This document shows positions 1 through 64,000 of a stretch of 64,000 bases of DNA, piece by piece. Origin of the DNA: Owenia fusiformis (lineage: Eukaryota); NCBI GenBank assembly GCA_903813345.2, contig CAIIXF020000001.1, positions 24,738,001-24,802,000 on the forward strand, read 5' to 3'. Each line of letters begins with the position of its first letter. Within the stretch, counting starts at the first letter, position 1. Position numbers and translations under genes: made by a program. Below the pieces are notes generated by a model, which made no database searches, had not been told where the DNA came from, and saw only the letters and a list, made by a program, of their open reading frames with translations.

Positions 1-3000
1 CTACAGCACCTGATGCTACAACTACAGTGGCTGACACAGCTACAGCTGATGCTACAACAACAGTTGCTGATACAACAACGGCTGATGTAACAACAACATT
101 AGCTGACACAACTACAGTGGCTGACGCAACTACGGCAGATTCTACAGCCTCTGATGCTACAACAACAGTTGCTGATACAACAACGGCTGATGTAACAACA
201 ACATTAGCTGACACAACTGCAGTGGCTGATGCAACTACGGCAGATACTACAGTAGCTGATGCTACAAGTACAGTGGCTGACACAAATGCAGCTGATGCTA
301 CAACAACAGTTGATGATGCAACAACGGCTGATGTTACAACAACAATAGCTGACACAACTACAGTGACTGACGCAACTACGGCAGATACTACAGCAGCTGA
401 TGCTACAAGTACAGTGGCTGACACAACTACAGCTGATGCTACAACAACAGTTGCTGACACAACTACAGTGGCTGACGCAACTACGGCAGATACTACAGCA
501 GCTGATGCTACAAGTACAGTGGCTGACACAACTAAAGCTGATGCTACAACAACAGTTGCTGATGCAACAACGGCTGATGTCACAACAACAGTGGCTGACA
601 CAACTACGGCAGATACTACAGCAGCTGGTGCTACAAGTACAGTGGCCGACACAACTACAGCAGATGTTACAACAACAGTTGCTGATGCAACAACGGCTGA
701 TGTTACAACAACAGTTGTTGACACAACTATAGTGGCTGATTCAACTACGGCAGATACTACAGCAGCTGATGCTACAAGTACAGTGGCTGACACAACTACA
801 CCTGATGCTACAACAACAGTTGCTGACACAACTACAGTGGCTGATGCGACTACGGCAGATACTACAGCAGCTGATGCTACAACTACAGTGGCTGACACAA
901 CTACAGTTGCTGACGCAACTACGGCAGATACTATAGTAGCTGATGCTACAACAACAGTGGCTGACACAACTACAGCTGATGCTACAACAACAGTTGCTGA
1001 TGCAACAACGGCTGATGTTACAACAACAGTTGCTGACACAACTACAGTGGCTGACGCAACTACGGCAGATACTACAGCAGCTGATGCTACAACTACAGTG
1101 GCTGACACAACTACAGCTGATGCTACAACAACAGTTGCTGATGCAACAACGGCTGATGTTACAACAACAAGAGCTGACACAACTACAGTGGCTGACGCAA
1201 CTACGGCAGATACTACAGCAGCTGATGCTACAACAACAGTTGCTGATGCAACAACGGCTGATGTTACAACAACAGTTGCTGATGCAACTACAGTGGCTGA
1301 TGCAACTACGGCAGATACTACAGCAGCTGATGCTACAACTACAGTGGCTGACACAACTACAGCTTATGCTACAACAACAGTTGCTGATGCAACAACGGCC
1401 GATGTTACAATAACAGTTGCTGACACAACTACAATGGCTGACGCAACTACGGCAGATACTACAGCAGCTGATGCTACAACTACAGTGGCTGACACAACTA
1501 CAGCTGATGTTGCAACAACAGTAGCTGACAAAACTACAGCGGCTTACGCAACTACGGCAGATACTACAGTTGCTGATGCAACAACGGCCGATGTTACAAC
1601 AACATTTGCTGACACAACAACAGAGGCTGACGCAACTACGGCAGATACTACAGCAGCTGATGCTACATCTACAGTGGCTGACACAACTACAGCTGATGGT
1701 ACAACAACAGTTGCTGATGCAACAACGGCTGATGTTACAACAACAGTTGCTGACACAACTACAGTGGCTGACGCAACTACGGCAGATACTACAGCAGCTG
1801 ATGCTACAACCACAGTGGCTGACACAACTACAGCTGATGCTACAACAACAGTTGCTGATGCAACAACGGCTGATGTTACAACAACAGTAGCTGACACAAC
1901 TACAGTGGCTGACGCATCTACGGCAGATACTACAGCAGCTGATGCTACAACTACAGTGGCTGACACAACTACAGCTGATGCTACAACAACAGTTGATGAT
2001 GCAACAACGGCTGATGTTACAACAACAGTAGCTGACACAACTACAGTGGCTGACGCAACTACGGCAGATACTACAGCAGCTGATGCTACAAGTACAGTGG
2101 CTGACACAACTACAGCTGATGCTACAACAACAGTTGCTGACACAACTACAGTGGCTGACCCAATTACGGCAGATACTACAGCAGTTGATGCTACAAGTAC
2201 AGTGGCTGACACAACTACAGCTGATGCTACAACAACAGTTGCTGATGCAACAACGGCTGATGTTACAACAACAGTTGCTGACACAGCTACAGTTGCTGAC
2301 GCAACTACGGCAGATACTACAGCAGCTAATGCTACAAGTACAGTGGCTAAAACAACTACAGCTGATGCTACAACAACAGTTGCTGATGCAACAACGGCTG
2401 ATGTTACAACAACAGTAGCTGACACAACTACAGTGGCTGACGCAACTACGGCAGATACTACAGCAGCTGATGCTACAACCACAACGGCTGATAGAACTAC
2501 AGCTGATGCTACAACAACAGTTGCTGATGCAACAACGGCTGATGTTACAACAACAGTTGCTGACACAACTACAGTTTCTGACGCAACTACGGTAGATACT
2601 ACAGCAGCTGATGCCACAACTACAGTGGCTGATACAACTACAGCTGATGCTACAACAACAGTTGCTGATGCAACAACGGCCGATGTTGCAATAACAGTTG
2701 CTGACACAACTACAGTTTCTGACGCAACTACGGTAGATACTACAGCAGCTGATGCTACAACTACAGTTGCTGACACAACTACAGTTGCTGACGCAACTAC
2801 GGCAGATACTTCAGCAGCTGATGCTACAAGTACAGTGGCTGACACAACTACAGCTGATGCTACAACAACAGTTGATGATGCAACAACGGCTGATGTTACA
2901 ACAACAATAGCTGACACAACTACAGTGGCTGACTCAACTACGGCAGATACTACAGCAGCTGATGCTACAAGTACAGTGGCTGACACAACTACAGCTGATG

Positions 3001-6000
3001 CTACAACAACAGTTGATGATGCAACAACGGCTGATGTTACAACAACAATAGCTGACACAACTACAGTGGCTGACGCAACTACGGCAGATACTACAGCAGC
3101 TGATGCTACAAGTACAGTGGCTGACACAACTACAGCTGATGCTACAACAACAGTTGCTGACACAACTACAGTGGCTGACGCAACTACGGCAGATACTACA
3201 GCAGCTGATGCTACAAGTACAGTGGCTGACACAACTAAAGCTGATGCTACAACAACAGTTGCTGATGCAACAACGGCTGATGTCGCAACAACAGTGGCTG
3301 ACACAACTACGGCAGATACTACAGCAGCTGGTGCTACAAGTACAGTGGCCGACACAACTACAGCAGATGTTACAACAACAGTTGCTGATGCAACAACGGC
3401 CGATGTTACAACAACAGTTGTTGACACAACTATAGTGGCTGATGCAACTACGGCAGATACTACAGCAGCTGATGCTACAAGTACAGTGGCTGACACAACT
3501 ACACCTGATGCTACAACAACAGTTGCTGACACAACTACAGTGGCTGATGCAACTACGGCAGATACTACAGCAGCTGATGCTACAAGTACAGTGGCTGACA
3601 CAACTACAGCTGATGCTACAACAACAGTTGCAGATGCAACAACGGCTGATGTTACAACAACAGTTGTTGACACAACTACAGTGGCTGATGCAACTACGGC
3701 AGATACTACAGCAGCTGATGCTACAACTACAGTGGCTGACACAACTACAGCTGATGCTACAACAACAGTTGCTGATGCAACAACGGCCGATGTTACAATA
3801 ACAGTTGCTGACACAACTACAGTGGCTGATGCAACTACGGCAGATACTACAGCACCTGATGCTACAACTACAGTGGCTGACACAGCTACAGCTGATGCTA
3901 CAACAACAGTTGCTGATACAACAACGGCTGGTGTAACAACAACATTAGCTGACACAACTGCAGTGGCTGACGCAATTACGGCAGATTCTACAGCCTCTGA
4001 TGCTACAACTACAGTTGCTGACACAACTACAGCTGATGCTACAACAACAGTTGCTGATGTTACAACGGCTGATGTTACAACAACAGTTGCTGACACAACT
4101 ACATTGGCTGACGCAACTAAGGCAGATACTACAGCAGTTGATGCTACAAGTATAGTGGCTGACACAATTACAGCTGATACTACAACAACAGTTGCTGAGG
4201 CAACAACGGCTGATGTTACAACAACAGTAGCTGCCACAACTACAGTGGCTGACGCAACTACGGCAGATACTTCAGCAGCTGATGCTACAAGTACAGTGGC
4301 TGACACAACTACAGCTGATGCTACAACAACAGTTGATGATGCAACAACGGCTGATGTTACAACAACAATAGCTGACACAATTACAGTGGCTGACGCAACT
4401 ACGGCAGATACTACAGCAGCTGATGCTACAAGTACAGTGGCTGACACAACTTCAGCTGATGCTACAACAACAGTTGCTGATGCAACAACGGCTGATATTA
4501 CAACAACAGTAGCTGACACAACTACAGTGGCTGACGCAACTACGGCAGATACTACAGCAGCTGATGCTACAAGTACAGTGGCTGACACAACTACAGCTGA
4601 TGCTACAACAACAGTTGCTGACACAACTACAGTGGCTGACGCAACTACGGCAGATACTACAGCAGCTGATGCTACAAGTACAGTGGCTGACACAACTAAA
4701 GCTGATGCTACAACAACAGTTGCTGATGCAACCACGGCTGATGTCACAACAACAGTGGATGACACAACTACGGCAGATACTACAGCAGCTGGTGCTACAA
4801 GTACAGTGGCCGACACAACTACAGCAGATGTTACAACAACAGTTGCTGATGCAACAACGGCTGATGTTACAACAACAGTTGTTGACACAACTATAGTGGC
4901 TGATGCAACTACGGCAGATACTACAGCAGCTAATGCTACAAGTACAGTGGCTGACACAACTACAGCTGATGCTACAACAACAGTTGCTGACACAACTACT
5001 GTGGCTGATGCAACTACGGCAGATACTACAGCAGCAGATGCTACAAGTGCAGTGGCTGACACAACTACAGCTGATGCTACAACAACAGTTGCAGATGCAA
5101 CAACGGCTGATGTTACAACAACAGTTGTTGACACAACTACAGTGGCTGAAGCAACTACGGCAGATACTACAGCAGCTGATGCTACAACTACAGTGGCTGA
5201 CACAACTACAGTTGCTGACGCAACTACGGCAGATACTATAGTAGCTGATGCTACAACTACAGTGGCTGACACAACTACAGCTGATGCTACAACAACAGTT
5301 GCTGATGCAACAACGGCTGATGTTACAACAACAGTAGCTGACACAACTACAGTGGCTGACGCATCTACGGCAGATACTACAGCAGCTGATGCTACAACTA
5401 CAGTGGCAGACACAACTACAGCTGATGCTACAACAACAGTTGATGATGCAACAACGGCTGATGTTACAACAACAGTAGCTGACACAACTACAGTGGCTGA
5501 CGCAACTACGGCAGATACTACAGCAGCTGATGCTACAAGTACAGTGGCTGACACAACTACAGCTGATGCTACAACAACAGTTGCTGACACAACTACAGTG
5601 GCTGACGCAATTACGGCAGATACTACAGCAGTTGATGCTACAAGTACAGTGGCTGACACAACTACAGCTGATGCTACAACAACAGTTGCTGATGCAACAA
5701 TGGCTGATGTTACAACAACAGTTGCTGACACAGCTACAGTTGCTGACGCAACTACGGCAGATACTACAGCAGCTGATGCTACAAGTACAGTGGCTGAAAC
5801 AACTACAGCTGATGCTACAACAACAGTTGCTGATGCAACAACAGCTGATATTACAACAACAGTAGCTGACACAACTACAGTGGCTGACGCAACTACGGCA
5901 GATACTACAGCAGCTGATGCTACAACTACAGTTGCTGACACAACTACAGTTGCTGACGCAACTACGGCAGATACTACAGCAGCTGATGCTACAACTACAG

Positions 6001-9000
6001 TGGCTGACACAACTACAGCTGATGCTACAACAACAGTTGCTGATGCAACAACGGCTGATGTTACAACAACAGTTGCTGACACAACTACAGTGGCTGACGA
6101 AACTACGGCAGATACTACAGCAGCTGATGCTACAACTACAGTGGCTGACACAACTACAGCTGATGCTACAACAACAGTTGCTGATGCAACAACGGCTGAT
6201 GTTACAACAACAAGAGCTGACACAACTACAGTGGCTGACGCAACTACGGCAGATACTACAGCAGCTGATGGTACAACAACAGTTACTGATGCAACAACGG
6301 CTGATGTTACAACAACAGTTGCTGATGCAACAACGGCTGATGTTACAACAACAGTAGCTGTCACAACTACAGTGGCTGACGCAACTACGGCAGATACTAC
6401 AGCAGCTGATGCTACAACTACAGTGGCTGACACAACTACAGCTGATGCTACAACAACAGTTGCTGATGCAACAACGGCTGATGTTACAACAACAGTTGCT
6501 GAAGGAAATACGGCAGATACTACAGCAGCTGATGCTACAACTACAGTGGCTGACACAACTACAGCTGATGCTACAACAACAGTTGCTGATGCAACAACGG
6601 CTGATGTTACAACAACAGTTGCTGATGCAACAACGGCTGATGTTACAACAACATTTGCTGACACAACTACAGTGGCTGATGCAACTACGGCAGATACTAC
6701 AGCAGCTGATGCTACAACTACAGTGGCTGACACAACTACAGCTGATGCTACAACAACAGTTGCTGATGCAACAACGGCTGATATTACAACAACAGTAGCT
6801 GACACAACTACAGTGGCTGACGCAACTACGGCAGATACTACAGCAGTTGATGCTACAACCACAGCGGCTGATAGAACTACAGCTGATGCTACAACAACAG
6901 TTGCTGATGCAACAACGGCTGATGTTACAACAACAGTAGCTGACACAACTACAGTGGCTGACACAACTACAGCTGATGCTACAACAACAGTTGCTGATGC
7001 AACAACGGCTGATGTTACAACAACAGTTGCTGACACAACTACAGTTTCTGACGCAACTACGGTAGATACTACAGCAACTGATGCCACAACTACAGTGGCT
7101 GACACAACTACAGCTGATGCTACAACAACAGTTGCTGATGCAACAACGGCTGATGTTACAACAACAGTAGCTGACACAACTACAGTGGCTGATGCAACTA
7201 CGGCAGATACTACAGCAGCTGATGCTACAAGTACAGTGGCTGACACAACTACAGCCGATGCTACAACAACAGTTGCTGATGCAACAACGGCTGATGTTAC
7301 AACAACAGTAGCTGACACAATTACAGTGGCTGACGCAACTACGGCAGATACTACAGCAGCTGATGCTACAGCTACAGTGGCTGACACAACTACAGCTGAT
7401 GCTACAACAACAGTTGATGATGCAACAACGGCTGATGTTACAACAACAGTAGCTGACACAACTACAGTGGCTGACGCAACTACGGCAGATACTACAGAAG
7501 CTGATGCTACAACAACAGTAGCTGACACAACTACAGTGGCTGACGCAACTACGGCAGATACTACAGTTGCTGATGCAACAACGGCCGATGTTACAACAAC
7601 ATTTGCTGACACAACAACAGTGGCTGACGCAACTACGGCAGATACTACAGCAGCTGATGCTACATCTACAGTGGCTGACACAACTACAGCTGATGGTACA
7701 ACAACAGTTACTGATGCAACAACGGCTGATATTACAACAACAGTAGCTGACACAACTACAGTGGCTGACGCAACTACGGCAGATACTACAGCAGCTGATG
7801 CTACAACCACAGCGGCTGATAGAACTGCAGCTGATGCTACAACAACAGTTGCTGATGCAACAACGGCTGATGTTACAACAACAGTTGCTGACACAACTAC
7901 AGTTTCTGACGCAACTACGGCAGATACTAGAGCAGCTGATGCTACAAGTACAGTGGCTGGCACAACTACAGCCGATGCTACAACAACAGTTGCTGATGCA
8001 ACAACGGCTGATGTTACAACAACAGTAGCTGACACAACTACAGTGGCTGACGCAACTACGGCAGATACTACAGCAGCTGATGCTACAACCACAGTGGCTG
8101 ACACAACTACAGCTGATGCTACAACAACAGTTGCTGATGCAACAACGGCTGATGTTACAACAACAGTAGCTGATACAACTACAGTGGCTGACGCAACTTC
8201 GTCAAATACTACAGCAGCTGATGCTACAACTACAGTGGCTGACACAACCACAGCTGATGCTACAACAACAGTTGCTGATGCAACAACGGCTGATGTTACA
8301 ACAACAGTTGCTGACACAACTACAGTGGCTGACACAACTACAGCTGATGCTACAACAACAGTTGCTGATGCAACAACGGCTGATGTTACAACAACAGTTG
8401 CTGACACAACTACAGTTTCTGACGCAACTACGGCAGATACTACAGCAGCTGATGCTACAAGTACAGTGGCTGACACAACTACAGCCGATGCTACAACAAC
8501 AGTTGCTGATGCAACAACGGCTGATGTTACAACAACAGTAGCTGACACAACTACAGTGGCTGACGCAACTACGGCAGATACTACAGCAGCTGATGCTACA
8601 TCTACAGTGGCTGACACAACTACAGCTGATGGTACAACAACAGTTGCTGAGGCAACAACGGCTGATGTTACAACAACATTTGCTGACACAACAACAGTGG
8701 CTGACGCAATTACGGCAGATACTACAGCAGCTGATGCTACATCTACAGTGGCTGACACAACTACAGCTGATGGTACAGCAACAGTTGCTGATGCAACAAC
8801 GGCTGATGTTACAACAACAGTTGCTGACACAACTACAGTGGCTGACACAACTACGGCAGATACTACAGCAGCTGATGCTACAACCACAGTGGCTGACACA
8901 ACTACAGCTGATGCTACAACAACAGTTGCTGATGCAACAACGGCTGATGTTACAACAACAGTAGCTGACACAACTACAGTGGCTGACGCATCTACGGCAG

Positions 9001-12000
9001 ATACTACAGCAGCTGATGCTACAACTACAGTGGCTGACACAACTACAGCTGATGCTACAACAACAGTTGATGATGCAACAACGGCTGATGTTACAACAAC
9101 AGTAGCTTACACAACAACAGTTGATGATGCAACAACGGCTGATGTTACAACAACAGTAGCTGACACAACTACAGTGGCTGACGCAACTACGGCAGATACT
9201 ACAGCAGCTGATGCTACAAGTACAGTGGCTGACACAACTACAGCTGATGCTACAACAACAGTTGCTGACACAACTACAGTGGCTGATGCAACTACGGCAG
9301 ATACTACAGCAGCTGATGCTACAAGTACAGTGGCTGACACAACTACAGCTGATGCTACAACAACAGTTGCTGATGCAACAACGGCTGATGTTAAAACAAC
9401 AGTTGCTGACACAACTACAGTTGCTGACGCAACTACGGCAGATACTACAGCAGCTGATGCTACAAGTACAGTGGCTGAAACAACTACAGCTGATGCTACA
9501 ACAACAGTTGCTGATGCAACAACGGCTGATGTTACAACAACAGTTGCTGACACAACTACAGTGGCTGACGCAACTACGGCAGATACTACAACAGCTGATG
9601 CTACAACTACAGTGGCTGACACAACTACAGCTGATGCTACAACAACAGTTGCTGATGCAACAACGGCAGATACTACAGCAGCTGATGCTACATTTACAGT
9701 GGCTGACACAACTACAGCTGATGCTACAACAACAGTTGCTGATGCAACAACGGCTGATGTTACAACAACAGTTGCTGACACAACTACAGTGGCTGATGCA
9801 ACTAAGGCAGATACTACAGCAACTGATGCTACATACACAGTGGCTGACACAACTACAGCTGATGCTACAACAACAGTAGCTGACACAACTACAGTGGCTG
9901 ACGCAACTACGGCAGATACTACAGCAGCTGATGGTACAACTACAGTGGCTGACACAACTACAGCTGATGCTATAACAACAGTTGCTGATGCAACAACGAC
10001 TGATGTTACAACAACAGTAGCTGACACAACTACAGTGGCTGACACAACTACAGCTGATGCTACAGCAACAGTTGCTGATGCAACAACGGCTGATGTTACA
10101 ACAACAGTTGCTGACACAACTACAGTGGCTGACGCAACTACGGCAGATACTACAGCAGCTGGTGCTACAACTACATTGGCTGACACAACTACAGCTGATG
10201 CTACAACAACAGTTGCTGATGCAACAACGGCTGATGTTACAACAACAGTTGCTGACACAACTACAGTGTCTGACGCAACTACGGCAGATACTACAGCAGC
10301 TGATGCTACAACCACAGTGGCTGACACAACTACAGCTGATGCTACAACAACAGTTTCTGATGCAACAACGGCTGATGTTACAACAACAGTTGCTTACACA
10401 ACTACAGTTGCTGACACAACTACGGTAGATACTACAGCAGCTGATGCCACAACTACAGTGGCTGACACAACTACAGCTGATGCTACAACAACAGTTGCTG
10501 ATGCAACAACGGCTGATGTTACAACAACAGTAGCTGACACAACTACAGTGGCTGGCGTAACTACGGCAGATACTACAGTTGCTGATGCAACAACGGCCAA
10601 TGTTACAACAACATTTGCTGACACAACAACAGTGGCTGACGCAACTACGGCAGATACTACAGCAGCTGGTGCTACAACTACATTGGCTGACACAACTACA
10701 GCTGATGCTACAACAACAGTTTCTGATGCAACAGCGGCTGATGTTACAACAACAGTTGCTTACACAACAACAGTTGCTGACACAACTACAGTGGCTGATG
10801 CAACTAAGGCAGATACTACAGCAACTGATGCTACAACCAGAGTGGCTGACACAACTACAGCTGATGCTACAACAACAGTTGCTGATACAACTACAGTGGC
10901 TGACGCAACTACGACAGATATTATAGCAGCTGATGCTACAACCACAGTGGCTGACACAACTACAGCTGATGCTACAACAACAGTTGCTGATGCAACAACG
11001 GCTGATGTTACAACAACAGTAGCTGACACAACTACAGTGGCTGACGCAACTGCGGCAGATACTACAGCAGCTGATGCTATAACTACAGTGGCTGACACAA
11101 ATACATCTGATGCTACAACAACAGTTGCTGATGCAACAACGGCTGATATTACAACAGCAGTTGCTGATACAGCTACAGTGATTGACGCAACTACGGCAGA
11201 TACTACAGCAGCTGATGCTACAACCACAGCGGCTGATACAACTACAGCTGATGCTACAACAACAGTTGCTGATGCAACAACGGCTGATGTTACAACAACA
11301 ATAGCTGACACAACTACAGTGGCTGACACAACTACAGCTGATGCTACAACAACAGTTTCTGATGCAACAACGGCTGATGTTACAACAACAGTTGCTTACA
11401 CAACTACATTTGCTGACACAACTACGGTAGATACTACAGCAGCTGATGCCACAACTACAGTGGCTGACACAACTACAGCTGATGCTACAACAACAGTTGC
11501 TGATGCAACAACGGCTGATGTTACAACAACAGTTGCTGACACAACTACAGTGTCTGACGCAACTACGGCAGATACTACAGCAGCTGATGCTACAACCACA
11601 GTGGCTGACACAACTACAGCTGATGCTACAACAACAGTTGCTGATGCAACAACGGCTGATGTTACGATAACAGTAGCTGACACAACTACAGTGGCTGACG
11701 CAAGTACGGCAGATACTACAGCAGCTGATGCTACAACTACAGTGGCTGACACAACTACAGCTGATGCTACAACAACAGTTGCTTATGCAACAACGGCTGA
11801 TGTTACAACAACAGTTGCTGACACAACTACAGTTGCTGACGCAACTACAGCAGATACTACAGCAGCTGATGCTACAATTTCAGTGGCTGAAACAACTACA
11901 GCTGATGCTACAACAACAGTTGCTGATGCAACAACGGCTGATGTTACAACAACAGTAGCTGACACAACTACAGTGGCTGACGCAACTACGGCCGATACTA

Positions 12001-18000: not shown

Positions 18001-19510
18001 CAGCGGCTGACGTAACTACGCCAGATACTACAGCAGCTGATGCCAAAACCACAGTGGCGGACACAACTACAGCTAATGCTACAACAACAGTTGCTGATGC
18101 AAAAACGGCTGATGATACAACAACAGTTGCTGACACAACTACAGTGGCTGACACAACTACGGCAGATAATGCAGCAGCTGATACTACAACTACAGTGGCT
18201 GACACAACAACAGCTGATGTTACAAAAACAGTTGCTGATGCAACAACAGCTGATGTTACAACAACACTAGCTTACAAAACTACAGTGGCTGACGCAACTA
18301 CGGCAGATACTACAGCAGCTGGTGCTACAACAACAGTGGCTGAAAGAACTACAACTGATGCTACAACAACAGTTGCTGATGCAACAACGGCTGATGTTAC
18401 AACATTAGTTCCTGACACAACTACAGCGGCTGACGCAACTACGGCAGATACTACAGCAGCTGATGCTTCAACTTCAGTGGCTGACACAACTACAGCTGAT
18501 GCTACAACAACAGGTGCTGATGCAACAACAGCTTATGTTACAACAACAGTAGTTGACACAACTACAGTGGCTGACGCAGCTACATCAGATACTACTGCAG
18601 CTGATGCTACAACTACAATTGCTGACACAACTACAGCTGATGATACAACAACAGTTGATGATGCAACAACGGCTGATGTTACAACAACAGTTGCTGACAC
18701 AACTACATTGGCTGTCACAACTACGGCAGATACTACAACAGTTGATGCTTCACTTAGAGTGGCTGTCACAACTACAGCTGATGCTACAACAACATTTGCT
18801 GATGCAAGAACGGATAATATTACAACAACAGTTGCTGGCACCACTAAAGTGGCTGACGCAACTACGGCAAATACTACAACAGCTGATGCTCTAACTACAA
18901 TGGTTGACACAACTACAGCTGATGCTACAACAACTGTTGCTGATGCAACAACGGCTTATGTAACAATAACAATTGCTGGCACAACTGCAGTAGCTGACGC
19001 AACTACGGCATATACTACAGCAGCTGATGCTACAACACAAGTGGCTGATGCAACAGCAGCTGATATAACAACTACAGTTGCTGGCACAACTACAGTGGCT
19101 GACGCAACTACGTCAGATACTACAGCAGCGGATGCTACAACTACATTGGCTGACACAACTACAGCTGATGCTACAACAACAATTGCTGATGCAACAACGG
19201 CTGATGTTACAACAACAGTAGCTGACACAACTACAGTTGATGATACAACAACAGTTGCTGATGCAACAACGGCTAATGTTACAACAACAGTTGCTGACAC
19301 AACTACAGTGGCTAATGTTACACAAGCTGTCACTACGACACATGCAACTACGACAGATACTACAGCAGCTGATGCTACAACTACTGTGGTTGACACAACT
19401 ACAACTTATGCTACAACAACAGTTGCTGATGCAACAACGGCTGATGTTACAACAACACTTGCCAACATAATTACAGTGGCTGACACAACTGCGGCTGATG
19501 CAACAAGTAC
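1..19510 (+). repeat. Coding tandem array A; consensus unit 141 bp / 47 aa, ADTTTV-ADATT-ADTTA-ADATTTV-ADTTT-ADATTTV-ADATT-ADVTTTV
   Basis: Marker tacggcagat recurs at 141-bp spacing (e.g. 1061 and 1202). Shorter units lack whole 15/18/21-bp sub-repeats. The array degenerates after ~17850. Confidence 0.95.
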
Positions 19511-19679
19511 ATTCCCAACATCTGGTCTTACAACTATAAGTTCTTTGCTTTACATAGTTCAACTAAATGGGACTGTCAGAATAACACATTACATGGGGGA
19601 AGCTGCAGAGTATAATTCTACGCTTGACGACGCGACGTCATATTTTTACTCTAAACTGTCGTCCGAGGCATGTGGAGAG
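1..19679 (+). CDS. Giant coding exon A (5'-truncated by the window) of a mucin-like glycoprotein: ~6,500 aa Thr/Ala/Asp/Val repeat plus N-half of a SEA domain
   Basis: Frame +3 is open from base 3 (ACA GCA CCT GAT...), so the GTG at 27 is not a real start. Track ORF 27..19694. The repeat decays near 19500 into unique sequence LYIVQLNGTVRITHYMGEAAEYNSTLDDATSYFYSKLSSEACGE, followed by a phase-0 donor GAG|GTAATG at 19679/19680. Confidence 0.93.
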
Positions 19680-53200: not shown

Positions 53201-56200
53201 CTACGGCAGATACTACAGCAGCTGATGCTACAAGTACAGTGGCTGACACAACTACAGCTGATGCTACAACAACAGTTGCTGATGCAACAACGGCTGATGT
53301 TACAACAACAGTAGCTGACACAACTACAGTGGCTGATGCAACTTCGGCAGATACAACAGCAGCTGATGCTACAACTACAGTGGCTGACACAACTCCAGCT
53401 GATGCTACAACAACAGTTGCTGATGCAACAACGGCTGATGTTACAACAACACTTGCTGACATAACTACAGTGGCTGATGCAACTACGGCAGATACTACAG
53501 CAGCTGATGCTACAACTACAGTGGCTGACACAACTACAGCTGATGCTACAACAACAGTTGCTGATGCAACAACGGCTGATGTTACAACAACAGTAGCTGA
53601 CACAACTACAGTGGCTGATGCAACTACGGCAGATACTACAGCAGCTGATGCTACAACTACAGTGGCTGACACAACTACAGCTGATGCTACAACAACAGTT
53701 GCTGATGCAACAACGGCTGATGTTACAACAACAGTAGCTGACACAACTACAGTGGCTGATGCGACTACGGCAGATACTACAGCAGCTGATGCTACAACTA
53801 CAGTGGCTGACACAACTACAGCTGATGCTACAACAACAGTTGCTGATGCAACAACGGCTGATGCTACAACAACAGTTGGTGACACAACTACAGAGGCTGA
53901 CGCAACTACGGCAGATACTACAGCAGCTGATGCTACAAGTACAGTGGCAGACACAACTACAGCTGATGCTACAGCAACAGTTGCTGGTGCAACAACGGCT
54001 GATGTTACAACAACAGTAGCTGACACAACTATAGTGGCTGACGCAACAACGGCAGATAATACAGCAGCTGATGCTACAACTACAGTGGCTGACACAACTG
54101 CAGCTGATGCTACAACAACAGTTGCTGATGCAACAACGGCTGATGTTACAACAACAGTTGCTGACACAACTACAGTGGCTGACGCAACTACGGCAGATAC
54201 TACAGCAGCTGATGCTACATCTACAGTGGCTGACACAACTGCAGCTGATGCTAAAACAACAGCAGCTGATGCTACAATTACAGTGGCTGACACAACTACA
54301 GCTGATGCTACAACAACAGTTGCTGATGCAACAACGGTTGATGTTACAACAACAGTTGCTGACAGAACAACGGTGGCTGACGCAACTACGGCAGATACTA
54401 CAGCAGCTGATGCTACAAGTACAGTGGTTGACACAACTACAGCTGATGCTACAGCAACAGTTGCTGATGCAACAACGGCTGATGTTACAACAACAGTTGC
54501 TGACACAACTACAGTGGCTGACGCAACTACGGCAGATACTACAGCAGCTGATGCTACAAGTACAGTGGCTGACACAACTACAGCTGATGCTACAACAACA
54601 GTTGCTGATGCAACAACGGCTGATGTTACAACAACAGTAGCTGACACAACTACAGTGGCTGATGCAACTTCGGCAGATACAACAGCAGCTGATGCTACAA
54701 CTACAGTGGCTGACACAACTACAGCTGATGCTACAACAACAGTTGCTGATGCAACAACGGCTGATGTTACAACAACACTTGCTGACACAACTACAGTGGC
54801 TGATGCAACTACGGCAGATACTACAGCAGCTGATGCTACAACTACAGTGGCTGACACAACTACAGCTGATGCTACAACAACAGTTGCTGATGCAACAACG
54901 GCTGATGTTACAACAACAGTAGCTGACACAACTACAGTGGCTGATGCGACTACGGCAGATACTACAGAAGCTGATGCTACAACTACAGTGGCTGACACAA
55001 CTACAGCTGATGCTACAACAACAGTTGCTGATGCAACAACGGCTGATGCTACAACAACAGTTGGTGACACAACTACAGAGGCTGACGCAACTACGGCAGA
55101 TACTACAGCAGCTGATGCTACAAGTACAGTGGCAGACACAACTACAGCTGATGCTACAGCAACAGTTGCTGGTGCAACAACGGCTGATGTTACAACAACA
55201 CTTGCTGACACAACTACAGTGGCTGATGCAACTACGGCAGATACTACAGCAGCTGATAATACAACTACAGTGGCTGACACAACTACAGCTGATGCTACAA
55301 CAACAGTTGCTGATGCAACAACGGCTGATGATACAACAACAGTAGCTGACACAACTTCAGTGGCTGACGCAACTACGGCAGATACTACAGCAGCTGATGC
55401 TACAAGTACAGTGGCAAACACAACTACAGCTGATGCTACAGCAACAGTTGCTGGTGCAACAACGGCTGATGTTACAACAACAGTAGCTGACACAACTATA
55501 GTGGCTGACGCAACTACGGCAGATAATACAGCAGCTGATGCTACAACTACAGTGGCTGACACAACTGCAGCTGATGCTACAACAACAGTTGCTGATGCAA
55601 CTACAGTGGCTGACGCAACTACGGCAGATACTACAGCAGCTGATGCTACATCTACAGTGGCTGACACAACTGCAGCTGATGCTACAACAACAGTGGCTGA
55701 CACAACTACAGTGGCTGACGCAACTACGGTAGATACTACAGCAGCTGATGCTACAACTACAGTGGCTGACACAACTGCAGCTGATGCTACAACAACAGTT
55801 GCTGATGCAACAACGGCTGATGTTACAACAGTTGCTGAAACAACTACAGTGGCTGACGCAACTACGGCAGATACTACAGCAGCTGATGCTACAATTACAG
55901 TGGCTGACACAACTACAGCTGATGCTACAACAACAGTTGCTGATGCAACAACGGCTGATGTTACAACAACAGTTGCTGACAGAACAACGGTGGCTGACGC
56001 AACTACGGCAGATACTACAGCAGCTGATGCTACAAGTACAGTGGTTGACACAACTACAGCTGATGCTACAGCAACAGTTGCTGATGCAACAACGGCTGAT
56101 GTTACAACAACAGTTGCTGACACAACTACAGTGGCTGACGCAACTACGGCAGATACTACAGCAGCTGATGCTACAAGTACAGTGGCTGACACAACTACAG

Positions 56201-59200
56201 CTGATGCTACAACAACAGTTGCTGATGCAACAACGGCTGATGTTACAACAACACTTGCTGACACAACTACAGTGGCTGACGCAACTACGGTAGATACTAC
56301 AGCTGCTGATGCTACAACTACAGTGGCTGACACAACTGCAGCTGATGCTACAACAACAGTTGCTGATGCAACAACGGCTGATGTTACAACAGTTGCTGAA
56401 ACAACTACAGTGGCTGACGCAACTACGGCAGATACTACAGCAGCTGATGCTACAATTACAGTGGCTGACACAACTACAGCTGATGCTACAACAACAGTTG
56501 CTGATGCAACAACGGCTGATGTTACAACAACAGTTGCTGACAGAACAACGGTGGCTGACGCAACTACGGCAGATTCTACAGCAGCTGATGCTACAAGTAC
56601 AGTGGTTGACACAACTACAGCTGATGCTACAGCAACAGTTACTGATGCAACAACGGCTGATGTTACAACATCAGTTGCTGACACAACTACAGTGGCTGAC
56701 ACAACTACGGCAGATACTACAGCAGCTGATGCTACAAGTACAGTGGCTGACACAACTACAGCTGATGCTACAGCAACAGTTGCTGCTGATGCTACAACTA
56801 CAGTGGTTGACACAACTGCAGCTGATGCTACAACAACAGTTGCTGATGGAACAACGGCTGATGTTACAACAACAGTTGCTGACACAACTACAGTGGCTGA
56901 CGCAACTACTGCAGATACTACAGCAGCTGATGCTATAAGTACAGTGGCTGACACAACTGCAGCTGATGCTACAACAACAGTTGCTGATGCAACAACGGCT
57001 GATGTTACAACAACAGTTGCTGACACAACTACAGTGGCTGACGCAACTTCGGCAGATACAACAGTAGCTGATGCTACAACTACAGTGGCTGACACAACTA
57101 CAGCTGATGTTACAACAACAGTTGCTGATGCAACAACGGCTGATGCTACAACAACAGTTGCTGGTGCAACAACGGCTGATGTTACAACAACAGTAGCTGA
57201 CACAACTATAGTGGCTGACGCAACTACGGCAGATAATACAGCAGCTGATGCTACAACTACAGTGGCTGACACAACAGCAGATGATGCTACAACAACAGTT
57301 GCTGATGCAACAACGGCTGATGTTACAACAACAGTTGCTGACACAACTACAGTGGCTGACGCAACTACGGCAGATACTACAGCAGCTGATGCTACATCTA
57401 CAGTGGCTGACACAACTGCAGCTGATGCTACAACAACAGTGGCTGACACAACTACAGTGGCTGACGCAACTACGGTAGATACTACAGCAGCTGATGCTAC
57501 AACTACAGTGGCTGACACAACTGCAGCTGATGCTACAACAACAGTTGCTGATGCAACAACGGCTGATGTTACAACAGTTGCTGAAACAACTACAGTGGCT
57601 GACGCAACTACGGCAGATACTACAGCAGCTGATGCTACAATTACAGTGGCTGACACAACTACAGCTGATGCTACAACAACAGTTGCTGATGCAACAACGG
57701 CTGATGTTACAACAACAGTTGCTGACAGAACAACGGTGGCTGACGCAACTACGGCAGATACTACAGCAGCTGATGCTACAAGTACAGTGGTTGACACAAC
57801 TACAGCTGATGCTACAGCAACAGTTACTGATGCAACAACGGCTGATGTTACAACAACAGTTGCTGACACAACTACAGTGGCTGACACAACTACGGCAGAT
57901 ACTACAGCAGCTGATGCTACAAGTACAGTGGCTGACACAACTACAGCTGATGCTACAGCAACAGTTGCTGCTGATGCTACAACTACAGTGGTTGACACAA
58001 CTGCAGCTGATGCTACAACAACAGTTGCTGATGGAACAACGGCTGATGTTACAACAACAGTTGCTGACACAACTACAGTGGCTGACGCAACTACTGCAGA
58101 TACTACAGCAGCTGATGCTACAAGTACAGTGGCTGACACAACTGCAGCTGATGCTACAACAACAGTTGCTGATGCAACAACGGCTGATGTTACAACAACA
58201 GTGGCCGACACAACTACAGTGGCTGACGCAACTACGGCAGATACTACAGCAGCTGATGCTACAAGTACAGTGGCTGACACAACTACAGCTGATGCTACAG
58301 CAACAGTTACTGATGCAACAACGGCTGATGTTACAACAACAGTTGCTGACACAACTACAGTGGCTGACGCAACTTCGGCAGATACAACAGTAGCTGATGC
58401 TACAACTACAGTGGCTGACACAACTACAGCTGATGTTACAACAACAGTTGCTGATGCAACAACGGCTGATGCTACAACAACAGTTGCTGATGCAACAACG
58501 GCTGATGTTACAACAACAGTAGCTGACACAACTACAGTGGCTGACGCAACTACGGCAGATACTACAGCAGCTGATGCTACAAGTACAGTGGCTGACACAA
58601 CTACAGCTGATGCTACAGCAACAGTTGCTGCTGATGCTACAACAACAGTGGCTGACACAACTACAGTGGCTGACGCAACTACGGTAGATACTACAGCAGC
58701 TGATGCTACAACTACAGTGGCTGACACAACTGCAGCTGATGCTACAACAACAGTTGCTGATGCAACAACGGCTGATGTTACAACAGTTGCTGAAACAACT
58801 ACAGTGGCTGACGCAACTACGGCAGATACTACAGCAGCTGATGCTACAAGTACAGTGGCTGACACAACTAAAGCTGATGCTACAGCAACAGTTGCTGATG
58901 CAACAACGGCTGATGTTACAACAACAGTAGCTGACATAACTACAGTGGCTGACGCAACTACGGCAGATACTACAGCAGCTGATGCTACAACTACAGTGGC
59001 TGACACAACTGCAGCTGATGCTACAACTACAGTGGCTGACACAACTGCAGCTGATGCTACAACAACAGTTGCTGATGCAACAACGGCTGATGTTACAACA
59101 ACAGTTTCTGACACAACTACAGTGGCTGACGCAACTACGGCAGATACTACAGCAGCTGATGCTACAACTACAGTGGCTGACACAACTGCAGCTGATGCTA

Positions 59201-62200
59201 CAACAACAGTTGCTCATGCAATAACGGCTGATGTTACAACAACAGTTGCTGACACAACTACAGTGGCTGACACAACTACGGCAGATACTACAGCAGCTGA
59301 TGCTACAAGTACAGTGGCTGACACAACTACAGCTGATACTACAACAACAGTTGCTGATGCAACAACGGCTGATGTTACAACAACAGTAGCTGACACAACT
59401 ACAGTGGCTGATGCGACTACGGCAGATACTACAGGAGCTGATGCTACAACTACAGTGGCTGACACAACTACAGCTGATGCTACAACAACAGTTGCTGATG
59501 CAACAACGGCTGATGCTACAACAGCAGTTACTGACACAACTACAGTGGCTGACGCAACTACGGCAGATACTACAGCAGCTGATGCTACAAGTACAGTGGC
59601 TGACACAACTACCGCTGATGCTACAGCAACAGTTGCTGATGCAACAACGGCTGATGTTACAACAACAGTAGCAGAGACAACTACAGTGGCTGACGCAACT
59701 ACGGCAGATACTACAGCAGCTGATGCTACAACTACAGTGGCTGACACACCTACAGCTGATGCTACAACAACAGTTGCTGATGCCACAACGGCTGATGTTA
59801 CAACAACAGTTGCTGACACAACTACAGTGGCTGACGCAACTACTGCAGATACTACAGCAGCTGATGCTACAAGTACAATGGCTGACACAACTACAGCTGA
59901 TGCTACAACAACAGTTGCTGATGCAACAACGGCTGATGTTACAACAACAGTAGCTGACACAACTACAGTGGCTGACGCAACTACGGCAGATACTACAGCA
60001 GCTGATGCTACAACTACAGTGGCTGACACAACTACAGCTGATGCTACAACAACAGTTGCTGATGCAACAACGGCTGATGTTACAACCACAGTTGCTGACA
60101 CAACTACAGTGGTTGACGCAACTACGGCAGATACTACAGCAGCTGATGCTACAACTACATTGGCTGACACAACTGCAGCTGATGCTACAACAACAGTTGC
60201 TGATGCAACATCGGCTGATGTTACAACAACAGTAGCTGACATAACTACAGTGGCTGATGGAACTACGGCAGATACTACAGCAGCTGATGCTACAACTACA
60301 GTGGCTGACACAACTGCAGCTGATGCTACAACTACAGTGGCTGACACAACTGCAGCTGATGCTACAACAACAGTTGCTGATGCAACAACGCCTGATGTTA
60401 CAACAACAGTTTCTGACACAACTACAGTGGCTGATGCAACTACGGCAGATACTACAGCAGCTGATGCTACAACTACAGTGGCTGACACAACTACAGCTGA
60501 TGCTACAACAACAGTTGCTGATGCAACAACGGCTGATGTTACAACAACACTAGCTGACACAACTACAGTGGCTGACGCAACTACGGCAGATAGGTCAGCA
60601 GCTGATAATACAACTACAGTGGCTGACACAACTACAGCTGATGCTACAACAACAGTTGCTGATGCAACAACGGCTGATGTTACAACAACAGTAGCAGACA
60701 CAACTACAGTGGCTGAAGCAACTACGGCAGATACTACAGCAGCTGATGCTACAACTACAGTGGCTGACACACCTACAGCTGATGCTACAACAACAGTTGC
60801 TGATGCAACAACGGCTGATGTTACAACAACAGTTGCTGACACAACAACAGTGGCTGACGCAACTACGGCAGATACTACAGCAGCTGATGCTACAAGTACA
60901 GTGGCTGACACAACTACAGCTGATGCTACAGCAACAGTTACTGATGCAACAACGGCTGATGTTACAACAACAGTTGCTGACACAACTACAGAGGTTGACT
61001 CAACTACGGCAGATACTACAGCAGCTGATGCTACAACTACAGTGGCTGACACAACTGCAGCTGATGCTACAACAACAGTTGCTGATGCAACATCGGCTGA
61101 TGTTACAACAACAGTAGCTGACATAACTACAGTGGCTGATGCAACTACGGCAGATACTACAGCAGCTGATGCTACAACTACAGTGGCTGACACAACTGCA
61201 GCTGATGCTACAACTACAGTGGCTGACACAACTGCAGCTGATGCTACAACAACAGTTGCTGATGCAACAACGCCTGATGTTACAACAACAGTTTCTGACA
61301 CAACTACAGTGGCTGATGCAACTACGGCAGATACTACAGCAGCTGATGCTACAACTACAGTGGCTGACACAACTACAGCTGATGCTACAACAACAGTTGC
61401 TGATGCAACAACGGCTGATGTTACAACAACACTATCTGACACAACTACAGTGGCTGACGCAACTACGGCAGATACTACAGCAGCTGATAATACAACTACA
61501 GTGGCTGACACAACTACAGCTGATGCTACAACAACAGTTGCTGATGGAACAACGGCTGATGTTACAACAACAGTTGCTGACACAACTACAGTGGCTGACG
61601 CAACTACTGCAGATACTACAGCAGCTGATGCTACAAGTACAGTGGCTGACACAACTGCAGCTGATGCTACAACAACAGCTGCTGATGCAACAACGGCTGA
61701 TGTTACAACAACAGTGGCTGACACAACTACAGTGGCTGACGCAACTACGGCAGATAGGTCAGCAGCTGATAATACAACTACAGTGGCTGACACAACTACA
61801 GCTGATGCTACAACAACAGTTGCTGATGCAACAACGGCTGATGTTACAACAACAGTAGCAGACACAACTACAGTGGCTGAAGCAACTACGGCAGATACTA
61901 CAGCAGCTGATGCTACAACTACAGTGGCTGACACACCTACAGCTGATGCTACAACAACAGTTGCTGATGCAACAACGGCTGATGTTACAACAACAGTTGC
62001 TGACACAACAACAGTGGCTGACGCAACTACGGCAGATACTACAGCAGCTGATGCTACAAGTACAGTGGCTGACACAACTACAGCTGATGCTACAGCAACA
62101 GTTACTGATGCAACAACGGCTGATGTTACAACAACAGTTGCTGACACAACTACAGAGGTTGACTCAACTACGGCAGATACTACAGCAGCTGATGCTACAA

Positions 62201-64000
62201 CTACAGTGGCTGACACAACTGCAGCTGATGCTACAACAACAGTTGCTGATGCAACATCGGCTGATGTTACAACAACAGTAGCTGACATAACTACAGTGGC
62301 TGATGCAACTACGGCAGATACTACAGCAGCTGATGCTACAACTACAGTGGCTGACACAACTGCAGCTGATGCTACAACTACAGTGGCTGACACAACTGCA
62401 GCTGATGCTACAACAACAGTTGCTGATGCAACAACGCCTGATGTTACAACAACAGTTTCTGACACAACTACAGTGGCTGATGCAACTACGGCAGATACTA
62501 CAGCAGCTGATGCTACAACTACAGTGGCTGACACAACTACAGCTGATGCTACAACAGCAGTTGCTGATGCAACAACGGCTGATGTTACAACAACACTATC
62601 TGACACAACTACAGTGGCTGACGCAACTACGGCAGATACTACAGCAGCTGATAATACAACTACAGTGCCTGACACAACTACAGCTGATGCTACAACAACA
62701 GTTGCTGATGCAACAACGGCTGATGATACAACAACAGTAGCTGACACAACTACAGTGGCTGACGCAACTACGGCAGATACTACAGCAGCTGATGCTACAA
62801 CTACAGTGGCTGACACAACTACAGCTGATGCTACAACAACAGTTGCTGATGCAACAACGGCTGATGTTACAACAACAGTTGCTGACACAACTACAGAGGT
62901 TGACGCAACTACGGCAGATACTATAGCAGCTGATGCTACAACTACAGTGGCTGACACAACTGCAGCTGATGCTACAACAACAGTTGCTGATGCAACAACG
63001 GCTGACACTACAACTACAGTGGTTGACACAACTGCAGCTGATGCTACAACAACAGTTGCTGATGGAACAACGGCTGATGTTACAACAACAGTTGCTGACA
63101 CAACTACAGTGGCTGACGCAACTACTGCAGATACTACAGCAGCTGATGCTACAACTACAGTGGCTGACACACCTACAGCTGATGCTACAACAACAGTTGC
63201 TGATGCAACAACGGCTGATGTTACAACAACAGTTGCTGACACAACAACAGTGGCTGACGCAACTACGGCAGATACTACAGCAGCTGATGCTACAAGTACA
63301 GTGGCTGACACAACTACAGCTGATGCTACAGCAACAGTTACTGATGCAACAACGGCTGATGTTACAACAACAGTTGCTGACACAACAACAGTGGCTGACG
63401 CAACTACGGCAGATACTACAGCAGCTGATGCTACAAGTACAGTGGCTGACACAACTACAGCTGATGCTACAGCAACAGTTACTGATGCAACAACGGCTGA
63501 TGTTACAACAACAGTTGCTGACACAACAACAGTTGCTGACACAACTACAGTGGCTGACGCAACTACGGCAGATACTACAGCAGCTGATGCTACAAGTACA
63601 GTTGCTGACACAACTACAGCTGATGCTACAACAACAGTTGCTGATGCAACAACTGCTGATGTTACAACAACAGTAGCTGATACAACTACAGTCACTAACA
63701 CAAATACGGCAGTTACTACAGCAGCTGATGCTACAACTACAGTGGATGACACAACTACAGCTGATGCTAGAACAACAGTTGCTGATGCAACAACGGCTGA
63801 TGTTACAACAACAGTAGCTGACACAACTACAGTGGCTGACGCAACTACGGCAGATACTACAGCAGCTGATGCTACAACTACAGTGGTTGACACAACTGCA
63901 GCTGATGCTACAACAACAGTTGCTGATGCAACAACGGCTGATGTTGCAAAAACAGTAGATGACATAACTACAGTGGCTGACGCAACTACGGCAGATACTA
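32132..64000 (+). CDS. Giant coding exon C (3'-truncated by the window): Ca-binding EGF domain followed by >10,500 aa of Thr/Ala/Asp/Val repeat
   Basis: Frame +1 reads (D)VDECIESIDTC...CKDDAATTVVDPTRVDSSTTADTATT... and is still in the same frame at 63961 (GAC ATA ACT ACA GTG GCT). All SATVVV-type antisense shadow ORFs keep one register across the exon (no frameshift), and the track lists no stop-terminated ORF in this frame. Confidence 0.92.
32320..64000 (+). repeat. Coding tandem array C; same 141-bp / 47-aa consensus as array A
   Basis: Same sub-repeats and position-specific codons as array A; degenerate over ~32320-34000, very homogeneous downstream; 282-bp (two-unit) offsets visible (shadow ORFs at 50321 and 50603). 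Confidence 0.95.

Follow-up and report, generated by a model that had tools for sequence, protein, structure and literature searches.

Drosophila Dumpy, an extracellular giant that exceeds 20,000 amino acids and serves as a tension-bearing tether, has huge tandem-repeat exons interspersed with EGF modules. In the matrix proteins agrin and IMPG1/IMPG2, Ser/Thr-rich O-glycosylated stretches flank a SEA domain and EGF modules follow, and in MUC3A/MUC3B/MUC12/MUC17 and MUC13 the module order is EGF-SEA-EGF. Membrane mucins of the SEA type (MUC1/3/12/13/16/17) are characterised by a signal peptide, a membrane span behind the SEA/EGF block, a cytoplasmic tail and densely O-glycosylated repeats. In the portion of Lang et al. 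2006 cited here, a mucin is understood as a protein with a PTS domain plus a SEA or VWD domain. Excerpts from the literature on individual mucins describe a PTS exon of 39,267 bp in human MUC3B (PMC9578598), extracellular SEA, EGF and PTS domains in chicken and mammalian Muc13, and MUC16 as the mucin with multiple SEA domains (PMC1552070).

Here we analyse a stretch of 64,000 nt of Owenia fusiformis DNA (the window), which we take, with a probability of roughly 60%, to come from the interior of a single very large gene of animal type that encodes an extracellular mucin-like protein. It holds two giant coding exons, no shorter than 19.7 kb and 31.9 kb, each a tandem array of a 47-residue Thr/Ala/Asp/Val unit, and the two arrays are bridged by a short non-repeat hinge, namely a SEA domain, interrupted by an intron of 125 nt, and then one calcium-binding EGF (cbEGF).

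Exon structure and the proposed joining of the two arrays

In a stop-to-stop listing of open reading frames, the forward strand shows a frame of 6563 aa (3..19694) that is open at the 5' end of the window and another of 10626 aa (32122..63999) that is open at its 3' end. The first contains exon A (19677 nt, phase 0), which comprises array A (3..19484), an in-frame Thr/Ala/Asp/Val repeat delimited by ORF, TRF and composition data and extending past the 5' end of the window, and a non-repeat tail (19485..19679) ending at the phase-0 donor GAG/gtaatg (19679/19680). Intron 1 (19680..19804; 125 nt, gtaatg...ttttag) has an in-frame stop five codons in, where the exon A ORF ends at 19694, and closes with the acceptor ttttag/ATC (19804/19805). 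Exon B (19805..20024; 220 nt, or 73 codons plus one base) leads through the donor TCAG/gtaaat (20024/20025) to intron 2 (20025..32131; 12,107 nt, gtaaat...ttacag) and its acceptor ttacag/AT (32131/32132). The spare base of exon B and the first two bases of exon C make up GAT (Asp). Exon C, entered in phase 1, carries the cbEGF at its start (32132..32280) and, uninterrupted by any intron, array C (32281..63999), which has the same 47-residue unit as array A and runs past the 3' end of the window. All of these features lie on the forward strand.

The A-B-C join (19679/19805 and 20024/32132) yields 17,255 codons with 0 stops, in a window without any N. This reproduces the uninterrupted series of 6,559 + 74 + 10,622 codons claimed in an earlier note on this DNA, together with its three-exon model of canonical GT-AG sites and compatible phases; the order it gave, Thr/Ala/Asp/Val array, SEA, cbEGF, Thr/Ala/Asp/Val array, is likewise borne out. 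Residues 6495-6693 are the sole non-array island of the spliced product, which has neither a start nor a stop nor a second domain island; as the note also held, the 64,000 nt contain no start or stop of the gene, and neither a signal peptide nor a membrane span was found in them. Exon C lacks an ATG ahead of the EGF, and a mere 10 nt of open frame precede its acceptor, so that it cannot begin a protein alone. A gene on the minus strand was rejected, since even the best frames there are broken by 10 to 40 stops in each array and encode no domain; its repeat-made ORFs nevertheless reach 5192 aa, and such false ORFs are an annotation hazard.

We infer that splicing of exons A, B and C gives a single product longer than 17,255 aa. 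A single product is favoured because the open frames, splice sites and phases fit, the phase-1 entry of the EGF matching the spare base of exon B. The alternative is that two neighbouring genes are present, the first consisting of array A and SEA, and the second having 5' exons in the 12-kb gap, followed by EGF and array C; the first would end at a stop (20084-20086) reached by read-through, or by splicing to a terminal exon. Such an arrangement would accommodate the length of the gap (12.1 kb, beside an intron of 125 nt), the fact that read-through of the exon B donor meets that stop after 20 more codons, and the separate evolution of arrays A and C. Against it, exon C needs a phase-1 entry, and exon B leaves exactly the one base that completes the Asp of the D-V-D-E-C motif.

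The contents of the gap bear on the same question. Intron 2 is AT-rich (GC 0.32-0.37) and dense with dispersed repeats, and a Pfam scan of 87 of its ORFs (all 78 on the forward strand, 9 of 76 on the minus strand) recovered no family at cut-off for any of the 78 forward-strand ORFs of at least 35 aa, so that no recognisable coding exon speaks for a second gene there. Weak matches to DUF6451, UME and NADHdh-2_N, all under their own cut-offs, were taken as chance, and the Rfam matches in the introns, miRNA-like ones on a palindromic repeat and a histone stem-loop, were all sub-threshold and were set aside. A search for a phase-1 first exon resembling a signal peptide also returned 0 candidates in the gap, in a crude scan of low power that gave 0 on the control strand as well. 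The AATAAA hexamer following exon B was rejected as a gene end: there are 44 in the window, all within 19744-31910, and a signal so frequent in the gap does not mark an end.

Read data came from a single raw DNA run and from three raw RNA-seq runs with the same species label, of which 6 to 12% each was read. All three RNA-seq runs have depth 0 on 19314-19754 and 32103-32539 (the end of exon A and the beginning of exon C), and neither splice junction is among the 15 joints listed (beside 144 further ones), the absence of 20024 to 32132 among these 15 being what a pair of genes would lead one to expect. Junctions 19679/19805 and 20024/32132, which the earlier note had predicted, are without read support in these three runs; from the zero RNA depth it follows no more than that expression is low or lacking in the tissues sampled. 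The RNA joints listed within the gap were rejected as splicing, in that they lack GT..AG ends and most occur also in the DNA run; they are repeat variants, and as such lend nothing to exons of a second gene. Very high DNA and RNA depth is confined to 20637-21959, 24165-24605 and 29457-30779. Two joints of the DNA run, 19438>32483 and 32500>19412, have sides of at most 22 letters and were taken as cross-matches of the array edges. Altogether we consider two separate genes quite improbable, and take the locus for a real giant mucin-like gene, probably a single one.

SEA and EGF modules of the hinge

Taken alone, exon B matches the Pfam SEA profile (PF01390) over positions 38-100 of 106 with 21.1 bits (E=3.5e-4), below the cut-off of 26.4. 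Its sole match among 1.84 billion representative proteins (E=4.2e-09, 28% identity) is to 13 stretches of an axolotl protein named 'mucin-1' by NCBI (XP_069506235.1; P0004), in which 13 stretches together score 687.7 bits with the SEA profile. A profile built from these 13 SEA units recovers exon B with 18.7 bits and the spliced 128-residue stretch with 20.0 bits, as against a best score of 8.2 bits in 200 shuffles of this joined stretch. Furthermore, SEA clusters account for 14 of the 30 matches by ESM language-model features of exon B (best score 0.91). The C-terminal half of the SEA domain that the earlier note had placed here is thereby supported by both the axolotl protein and the nearest feature clusters. 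Exon B matched no PDB sequence even at E<=10, and a word-index search of proteins of 129-2000 aa gave none at E<=0.01 among 123 candidates.

The tail of exon A is presumed to supply the N-terminal half, with the first strand and first helix, from about position 19545. The alignment to natural SEA units continues across the A/B joint; the tail adds only 1.3 bits to the SEA profile and by itself matches 0 Pfam families at E<=10. This part of the earlier proposal is accordingly not borne out by the sequence, and the SEA identification rests on half a domain that scores below the Pfam cut-off.

SEA domains fold as an alpha/beta sandwich of about 120 residues. They are described as self-cleaving at a motif GSVVV or GSIVA in the loop between strands 2 and 3, according to an excerpt from PMC6954182. 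Exon B has G-S-I-L-A (19877-19891; Gly 19877-19879, Ser 19880-19882) at the place of this loop, aligned with G-S-V-I-A of the axolotl protein.

The EGF module is recognised above cut-off by two profiles, EGF_CA (PF07645; 35.2 bits versus 27) and EGF_3 (32.9 bits versus 28.5). The earlier note had suggested a Pfam check of both modules, and it is thus the EGF half of that check that comes out above its cut-off and the SEA half that falls below. The six cysteines lie at product residues 6637-6678, and the sequence D-V-D-E-C, which spans the B/C joint, corresponds to the N-terminal D-x-D-E-C consensus of calcium-binding EGF modules. In PDB the best match is the EGF of NELL2 (1.3e-14), among 21 distinct sequences at E<=0.001. 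Profiles, cysteines and motif together establish the cbEGF named in the note.

Repeat arrays and the maintenance of their frame

Both arrays are built of one 47-residue (141-nt) unit, which TRF recovers at period 141 with 135.4 copies and 79% matches in array A and with 219.6 copies and 81% matches in array C. The unit is in turn composed of D...A subunits of 5-7 residues, lengths 5, 6 and 7 dominating. Array C is degenerate beside the EGF and homogeneous toward the end of the window. At both ends of the window the units still show the homogeneity of an array interior, so that each array extends further. Exact matches reach 840 nt inside an array, but no more than 156 nt from one array to the other; since units, for all their common pattern, are more alike within an array than between arrays, A and C are two real arrays, not one region assembled twice.

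The coding frame contains 0 stops in 6496 codons of array A and 0 in 10569 codons of array C, against 10 to 1585 stops per array in the remaining five frames. The best self-lag is a multiple of 3 in all 359 segments of 141 nt, as is the offset of all 20 exact repeats of at least 300 nt, and no stretch of shifted-frame composition was found in the spliced product beyond residues 6495-6693. Openness is partly compositional, because no codon of the main families (ACN, GCN, GAY and GTN) can become a stop by fewer than two changes; among 17065 array codons, just 290 need a single change, and much of the absence of stops is a matter of composition. In 100 simulations, a further 5% of random substitution nonetheless introduced 10.9 in-frame stops on average and never fewer than 4. 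Codons differing at a single position comprise 1027 synonymous and 1861 non-synonymous cases; if the observed ratio of 1.8 is set against a rough neutral estimate of about 2.6 non-synonymous per synonymous change, this would mean weak constraint on residue identity.

These figures allow one to weigh the view that the locus is dead or was never expressed, being a satellite-like 141-nt array that is open by composition and flanks a decayed SEA-EGF remnant. This view could draw on the zero RNA depth over the exons in three runs, the distance of the main codons from any stop, the two nearly open minus-strand frames (10 to 40 stops per array), the weak residue constraint and the sub-threshold SEA half. 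It is at odds with the lack of any frameshift in about 51 kb of array despite some 10% unit divergence and length variation, with both arrays being in frame with the adjoining domain sequences, with 0 stops where about 11 are expected at 5% neutral change, and with intact splice sites and a six-cysteine cbEGF above cut-off. We regard a dead locus as very improbable.

A different reservation concerns length: the gene could be real and its arrays mis-sized by the assembly, whether over-expanded or collapsed, in which case 17,255 aa would not be its true length. Inside the arrays, unique sequences make up no more than 3 to 23% of the 31-mers, and identical copies as long as 840 nt recur at offsets of 1.2 to 15 kb. 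The DNA run has depth 0 to 5 on unique bins, with 29,589 of 31,876 reads fitting no more than partly, and is too thin and diverged to gauge copy number. The diverged units (79 to 81% matches) without frame errors point to an accurate consensus, and the gradient of decay toward the hinge looks biological, though neither is a measure of length. Mis-sizing appears unlikely.

The arrays consist of T (.42), A (.26), D (.16) and V (.10), with Pro at 0.3%. In the spliced product, Thr accounts for 7109, Ser for 315, Pro for 56 and Asp plus Glu for 2893 of the 17,255 residues, with a pI of 4.05 and a protein mass of at least 1.65 MDa. Despite their 42% Thr, the arrays do not qualify as a classical PTS, for Pro amounts to 0.3% and Asp to 16%. 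The term mucin used in the note is therefore retained as an interpretation: the Thr-rich tandem repeats agree with it, whereas the near absence of Pro and Ser and the strong acidity do not. Acidic neighbours may disfavour mucin-type glycosylation.

One might accordingly consider an acidic structural protein in place of a glycosylated mucin, with the D...A subunits as a beta-rich fibre or calcium binder and SEA-EGF as its hinge; this reading envisages a matrix, adhesive or mineral-associated protein. Asp at 16%, the pI of 4.05, the scarcity of Pro and the presence of a calcium-binding EGF are in keeping with this reading, as is a structural model that draws 12 regular strands in 141 residues. 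That model is of low confidence, however (mean pLDDT 52.1 with no residue at or above 70, and five models ranging from 30 to 52), and the array prediction is consistent with a non-globular chain. Subunits of 5, 6 and 7 residues also suit a flexible chain better than a strict solenoid, and 42% Thr together with SEA is the hallmark of mucins used in the cited part of Lang et al. 2006. We consider the acidic structural alternative unlikely.

Database searches yielded no relative with this repeat among proteins of 440-4000 aa: the array query (P0001) retrieved low-complexity matches only, 2 among proteins of 440-1400 aa and 1 among those of 1401-4000 aa, with a query coverage of 4 to 42%. A string search of the literature for three of its peptide motifs gave no match. 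Predicted proteins searched include no counterpart of either array, and the SEA exon has none besides the distant axolotl protein; genes of this type are hence likely to be absent from annotations.

Possible function and comparison with known systems

On the preferred reading of a single mucin-like gene, the product is assumed to be secreted and anchored. Its Thr-rich arrays would carry O-glycans and adopt an extended form, as a brush or tether of polyanionic character, with the cbEGF as a calcium-stiffened connector. The SEA domain with its G-S-I-L-A motif may cut itself during folding, its halves then being held together non-covalently, and such a joint could part under pulling force. The arrays themselves may grow and shrink by unequal exchange; the likeness of their units is greatest in the interiors, and decay is strongest beside the hinge. 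If expressed as one product, it would be among the longest animal proteins; its SEA domain would lie mid-tether instead of adjacent to the membrane, which bears on SEA domains as force-sensitive break points. A further extension, that the gene is a series of several modules, each a cbEGF, a Pro-free polyanionic Thr array and a self-cleaving SEA, with a length far beyond 17,255 aa, is unlikely on present evidence; it takes up the (EGF-repeat-SEA)n chain, perhaps approaching titin in length, that the earlier note had proposed. Were it true, the mature product would consist of giant glycosylated segments joined only by non-covalent SEA joints, acting as mechanical fuses spaced along a megadalton tether, and the repeat chemistry, with its D...A subunits and an Asp content of 16%, would mark a previously undescribed class of mucins.

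Among known systems, MUC3A/MUC3B/MUC12/MUC17 and MUC13 resemble this locus in having a very long repeat exon beside small exons for SEA and EGF modules and a G-S motif at the SEA cleavage loop. In these mucins the SEA/EGF block adjoins the membrane span after a single PTS, whereas here it lies between two giant arrays and is followed in the window by another array and no membrane span. The repeats also differ from those of vertebrate SEA mucins in being made of Thr/Ala/Asp/Val with 0.3% Pro, and we found no similarity in sequence that goes beyond the domains.

MUC16 and the axolotl protein share with this locus a SEA placed inside the repeat region and not only at its end. The axolotl protein has 13 SEA domains with short Thr/Ser/Pro linkers between them, and a hydrophobic stretch near its C-terminal end may be read as a membrane span. 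Linkers in these two proteins are tens of residues long, while the arrays here reach 6,500 and 10,500 residues or more; neither protein has an EGF between its SEA units, and here only one SEA is visible, with an EGF following it. Agrin and IMPG1/IMPG2 share the order of mucin-like stretch, SEA and EGF, but their mucin-like stretches measure hundreds of residues, not thousands, and they have further domains not seen here. Dumpy lacks SEA, has DPY and ZP modules, and its repeat chemistry is unlike that of this locus.

The earlier suggestion that the layout is unlike that of known mucins therefore stands in part: multiple SEA domains between PTS linkers are known from MUC16 and the axolotl protein, and a single PTS exon of 39 kb is known from human MUC3B. 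Overall, the design is mucin-like and of a familiar kind, while its layout and repeat chemistry are unusual.

Proposed exon layout and reading frame of the repeat arrays

We read the window, at a probability of roughly 0.6, as part of a single gene encoding a giant, mucin-like protein of the extracellular space. By composition it consists of two regions with GC near 0.47 and a strong skew of A over T (1-19.5 kb and 32.3-64 kb) and a middle 12 kb with GC of 0.32-0.37 and no such skew. A stop-to-stop listing of the plus strand gave two long open frames, 3-19694 and 32122 to the last base, both of which leave the window unstopped and translate into monotonous Thr/Ala/Asp/Val repeats (array A, 3-19484, and array C, 32281-63999). 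The earlier note had connected these frames through a short central exon into a product of 6,559 + 74 + 10,622 codons. Joining exons A, B and C by coordinate with a script reproduced this product, giving 17,255 codons with 0 stops, and the four splice sites are present in the sequence with fitting phases: the exon A donor GAG|gtaatg (19679/19680), at which exon A ends in phase 0; the acceptor ttttag|ATC (19804/19805) and donor TCAG|gtaaat (20024/20025) of the 220-nt exon B; and the exon C acceptor ttacag|AT (32131/32132). The spare G of exon B and the AT of exon C together supply the Asp of the motif D-V-D-E-C. As just 10 nt of open frame precede the exon C acceptor, with no ATG among them, exon C cannot be a first coding exon.

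Tandem Repeats Finder recovered a common 141-nt unit in both arrays (135.4 copies with 79% matches, and 219.6 copies with 81% matches), whose 47-residue consensus resolves into eight subunits, 5 to 7 residues long, that all begin with Asp and end with Ala. The proposed frame has 0 stops in either array, against 10 to 1585 per array in the remaining five frames. Only 290 of the 17,065 array codons lie one step from a stop, and since it takes two changes to turn any of the prevailing ACN, GCN, GAY and GTN codons into a stop, the array frame is robust to point mutation. Nonetheless, simulated random substitution at 5% introduced a mean of 10.9 stops (minimum 4; 100 trials); about 10% of sites differ between neighboring units. 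A stronger argument against chance than the absence of stops is the keeping of frame: in all 359 windows of 141 nt the best self-match falls at a lag divisible by 3, with lags ranging from 90 to 198, and the offsets of all 20 maximal exact repeats of at least 300 nt are likewise divisible by 3. Constraint on residue identity is weak, with 1027 synonymous and 1861 non-synonymous changes among codons with a single difference and a third position only slightly more variable than the others. Mucin-like repeats are usually constrained at the level of composition, as are the arrays here.

Two minus-strand frames across the arrays are also nearly open. Two open stretches on this strand in the stop-to-stop listing, 2520 aa (1544-9106) and 5192 aa (43635-59213, the longest), are repeat-made, rich in Ser/Ala/Thr/Val and domain-free, and each array is interrupted overall by 10 to 40 stops in these frames; an ORF caller could nevertheless report them as genes.

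The SEA and EGF hinge

Residues 6495-6693 form the sole non-repeat island of the spliced product, and no stretch of foreign composition was found outside this hinge. Toward the C-terminus it consists of a calcium-binding EGF domain (Pfam EGF_CA, 35.2 bits; cut-off 27) with six cysteines, whose closest solved relative in the PDB is a NELL2 EGF domain (1.3e-14). Exon B scored 21.1 bits against Pfam SEA, under the cut-off of 26.4, matching profile positions 38-100 of 106, and its nearest clusters by language-model features are SEA clusters. When exon B was compared exhaustively by HMMER with 1.84 billion representatives, a single protein matched (E=4.2e-09, in 13 stretches), the axolotl protein XP_069506235.1 (2175 aa, named mucin-1 by NCBI), which contains 13 SEA domains (687.7 bits) and, close to its C-terminus, a hydrophobic segment that we read as a probable membrane span. 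At 28% identity, this protein is the only relative of the repeat or the SEA exon that the databases searched contained.

The spliced hinge, aligned with a script, matches natural SEA units unbroken across the junction of exons A and B. A profile built from the 13 axolotl units scored 20.0 bits on the spliced stretch and 18.7 on exon B alone, compared with 8.2 for the best of 200 shuffles, which argues that the SEA C-terminal half predicted for exon B is real. The tail of exon A had no Pfam match on its own; it is presumed to supply the SEA N-terminal half, for which it is correctly placed. The G-S-I-L-A of exon B occupies the place of GSVVV or GSIVA in other SEA domains (motifs described in PMC6954182), suggesting that autoproteolysis at this site is possible. 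Both SEA cysteines precede it.

The 12-kb gap, read mapping and array length

The predicted 12-kb intron separating exons B and C (20025-32131) contains no ORF longer than 135 aa, and among its ORFs of at least 35 aa none reached a Pfam cut-off (0 of 78 on the plus strand; 0 of the 9 scanned, out of 76, on the minus strand). No exon combining a signal peptide with a phase-1 donor came out of a crude scan, but its power is low, as the control strand gave none either. The gap instead holds several repeat families, and Rfam yielded only sub-threshold matches in it. One of its elements is a palindrome at 24254-24395 with arms of 69 nt, 75% complementary and 4 nt apart, that matches microRNA families below threshold (mir-85, 48.4 bits; gathering score 68). 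Its DNA depth is about 380, where unique bins have 0 to 5, and it resembles a high-copy repeat of the MITE type rather than a microRNA gene. Likewise, a histone 3' stem-loop match on the minus strand at 26346-26391 (23.5 bits, gathering score 34, E=0.0076) is sub-threshold, has no histone ORF nearby, and is probably due to chance. At 29457-30779 lie four copies of a 144-145-nt unit (87 to 92% identity), with a summed DNA depth near 1800 and strongly one-sided RNA reads (about 200-300 versus 10-27), which marks a dispersed repeat of very high abundance, transcribed from one strand somewhere in the genome. The element at 20637-21959 has high RNA depth in both orientations (about 55 to 218) and internal joints that are not GT..AG, most of which the DNA run shows too; it probably represents a transposon family that includes deletion variants.

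We mapped three raw RNA-seq runs carrying the same species label and one DNA run. The junctions 19679/19805 and 20024/32132, which the earlier note had put forward for detection in reads, have no read support in these three runs, as the exon A tail and the EGF and array C head had an RNA depth of 0, and neither junction was among the 15 joints listed (there were 144 further joints). The mapped RNA reads pile on three repeat elements that are hugely over-represented in the DNA run too, and the listed joints on these do not have GT..AG ends and for the most part turn up among the DNA reads as well. The gene is thus silent or rare in those three libraries.

Only 3 to 23% of the 31-mers in the array interiors are unique and exact repeats reach 840 nt, so the array length rests on the assembly; the DNA run, which is diverged and has 0 to 5 reads on unique bins, is uninformative on over-expansion. 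Uniqueness is lowest at 47700-63700 in array C (3 to 11%), where long-range exact duplications (e.g. 577 nt at 48162 and 61680; 540 nt at 48199 and 60553) point to recent block duplication within the array or to an assembly effect. Several features of the arrays favor real biology: each is more like itself than like the other, the longest exact match between them being 156 nt; residues other than Thr/Ala/Asp/Val rise from about 3-4% to 6-10% toward the hinge in both; and both are still homogeneous at the window ends, which suggests that they continue beyond.

Nature of the product and comparison with known mucins

The polypeptide in the window amounts to at least 1.65 MDa, with a pI of 4.05, 7109 Thr and 2893 acidic residues. 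Pro makes up 0.3% and Ser 1.8%, a non-classical PTS chemistry, and an acidic structural or calcium-binding protein, instead of a glycosylated mucin, is therefore a live rival. Under the mucin-like reading, comparison with SEA mucins would make the arrays O-glycosylated brushes; the SEA domain would serve as a non-covalent joint that gives way when pulled, and the cbEGF as a connector stiffened by calcium. An AlphaFold model of the array segment 63076-63498 had a mean pLDDT of 52.1 with no residue at or above 70, and the five models (30 to 52) disagreed, which would fit an extended chain. The same untrusted model has 12 strands at even spacing within 141 residues, each 6 to 7 residues long, and the repeat may have a regular beta-rich state.

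Lang et al. 2006 (PMC1552070) recognize a mucin by PTS in combination with SEA or VWD and describe multiple SEA domains in MUC16, and PMC9578598 gives a human MUC3B PTS exon of 39,267 bp. With these precedents neither the exon size nor an SEA domain within repeats is new in kind, and of the unusual layout claimed earlier what stands is the SEA-EGF unit between two giant arrays; a chain of (EGF-repeat-SEA)n modules of titin-scale length we consider improbable. The product differs from known mucins in having SEA-EGF between two arrays, one of at least 6,500 residues and the other of at least 10,500, and in a repeat that is acidic and practically Pro-free (0.3% Pro).
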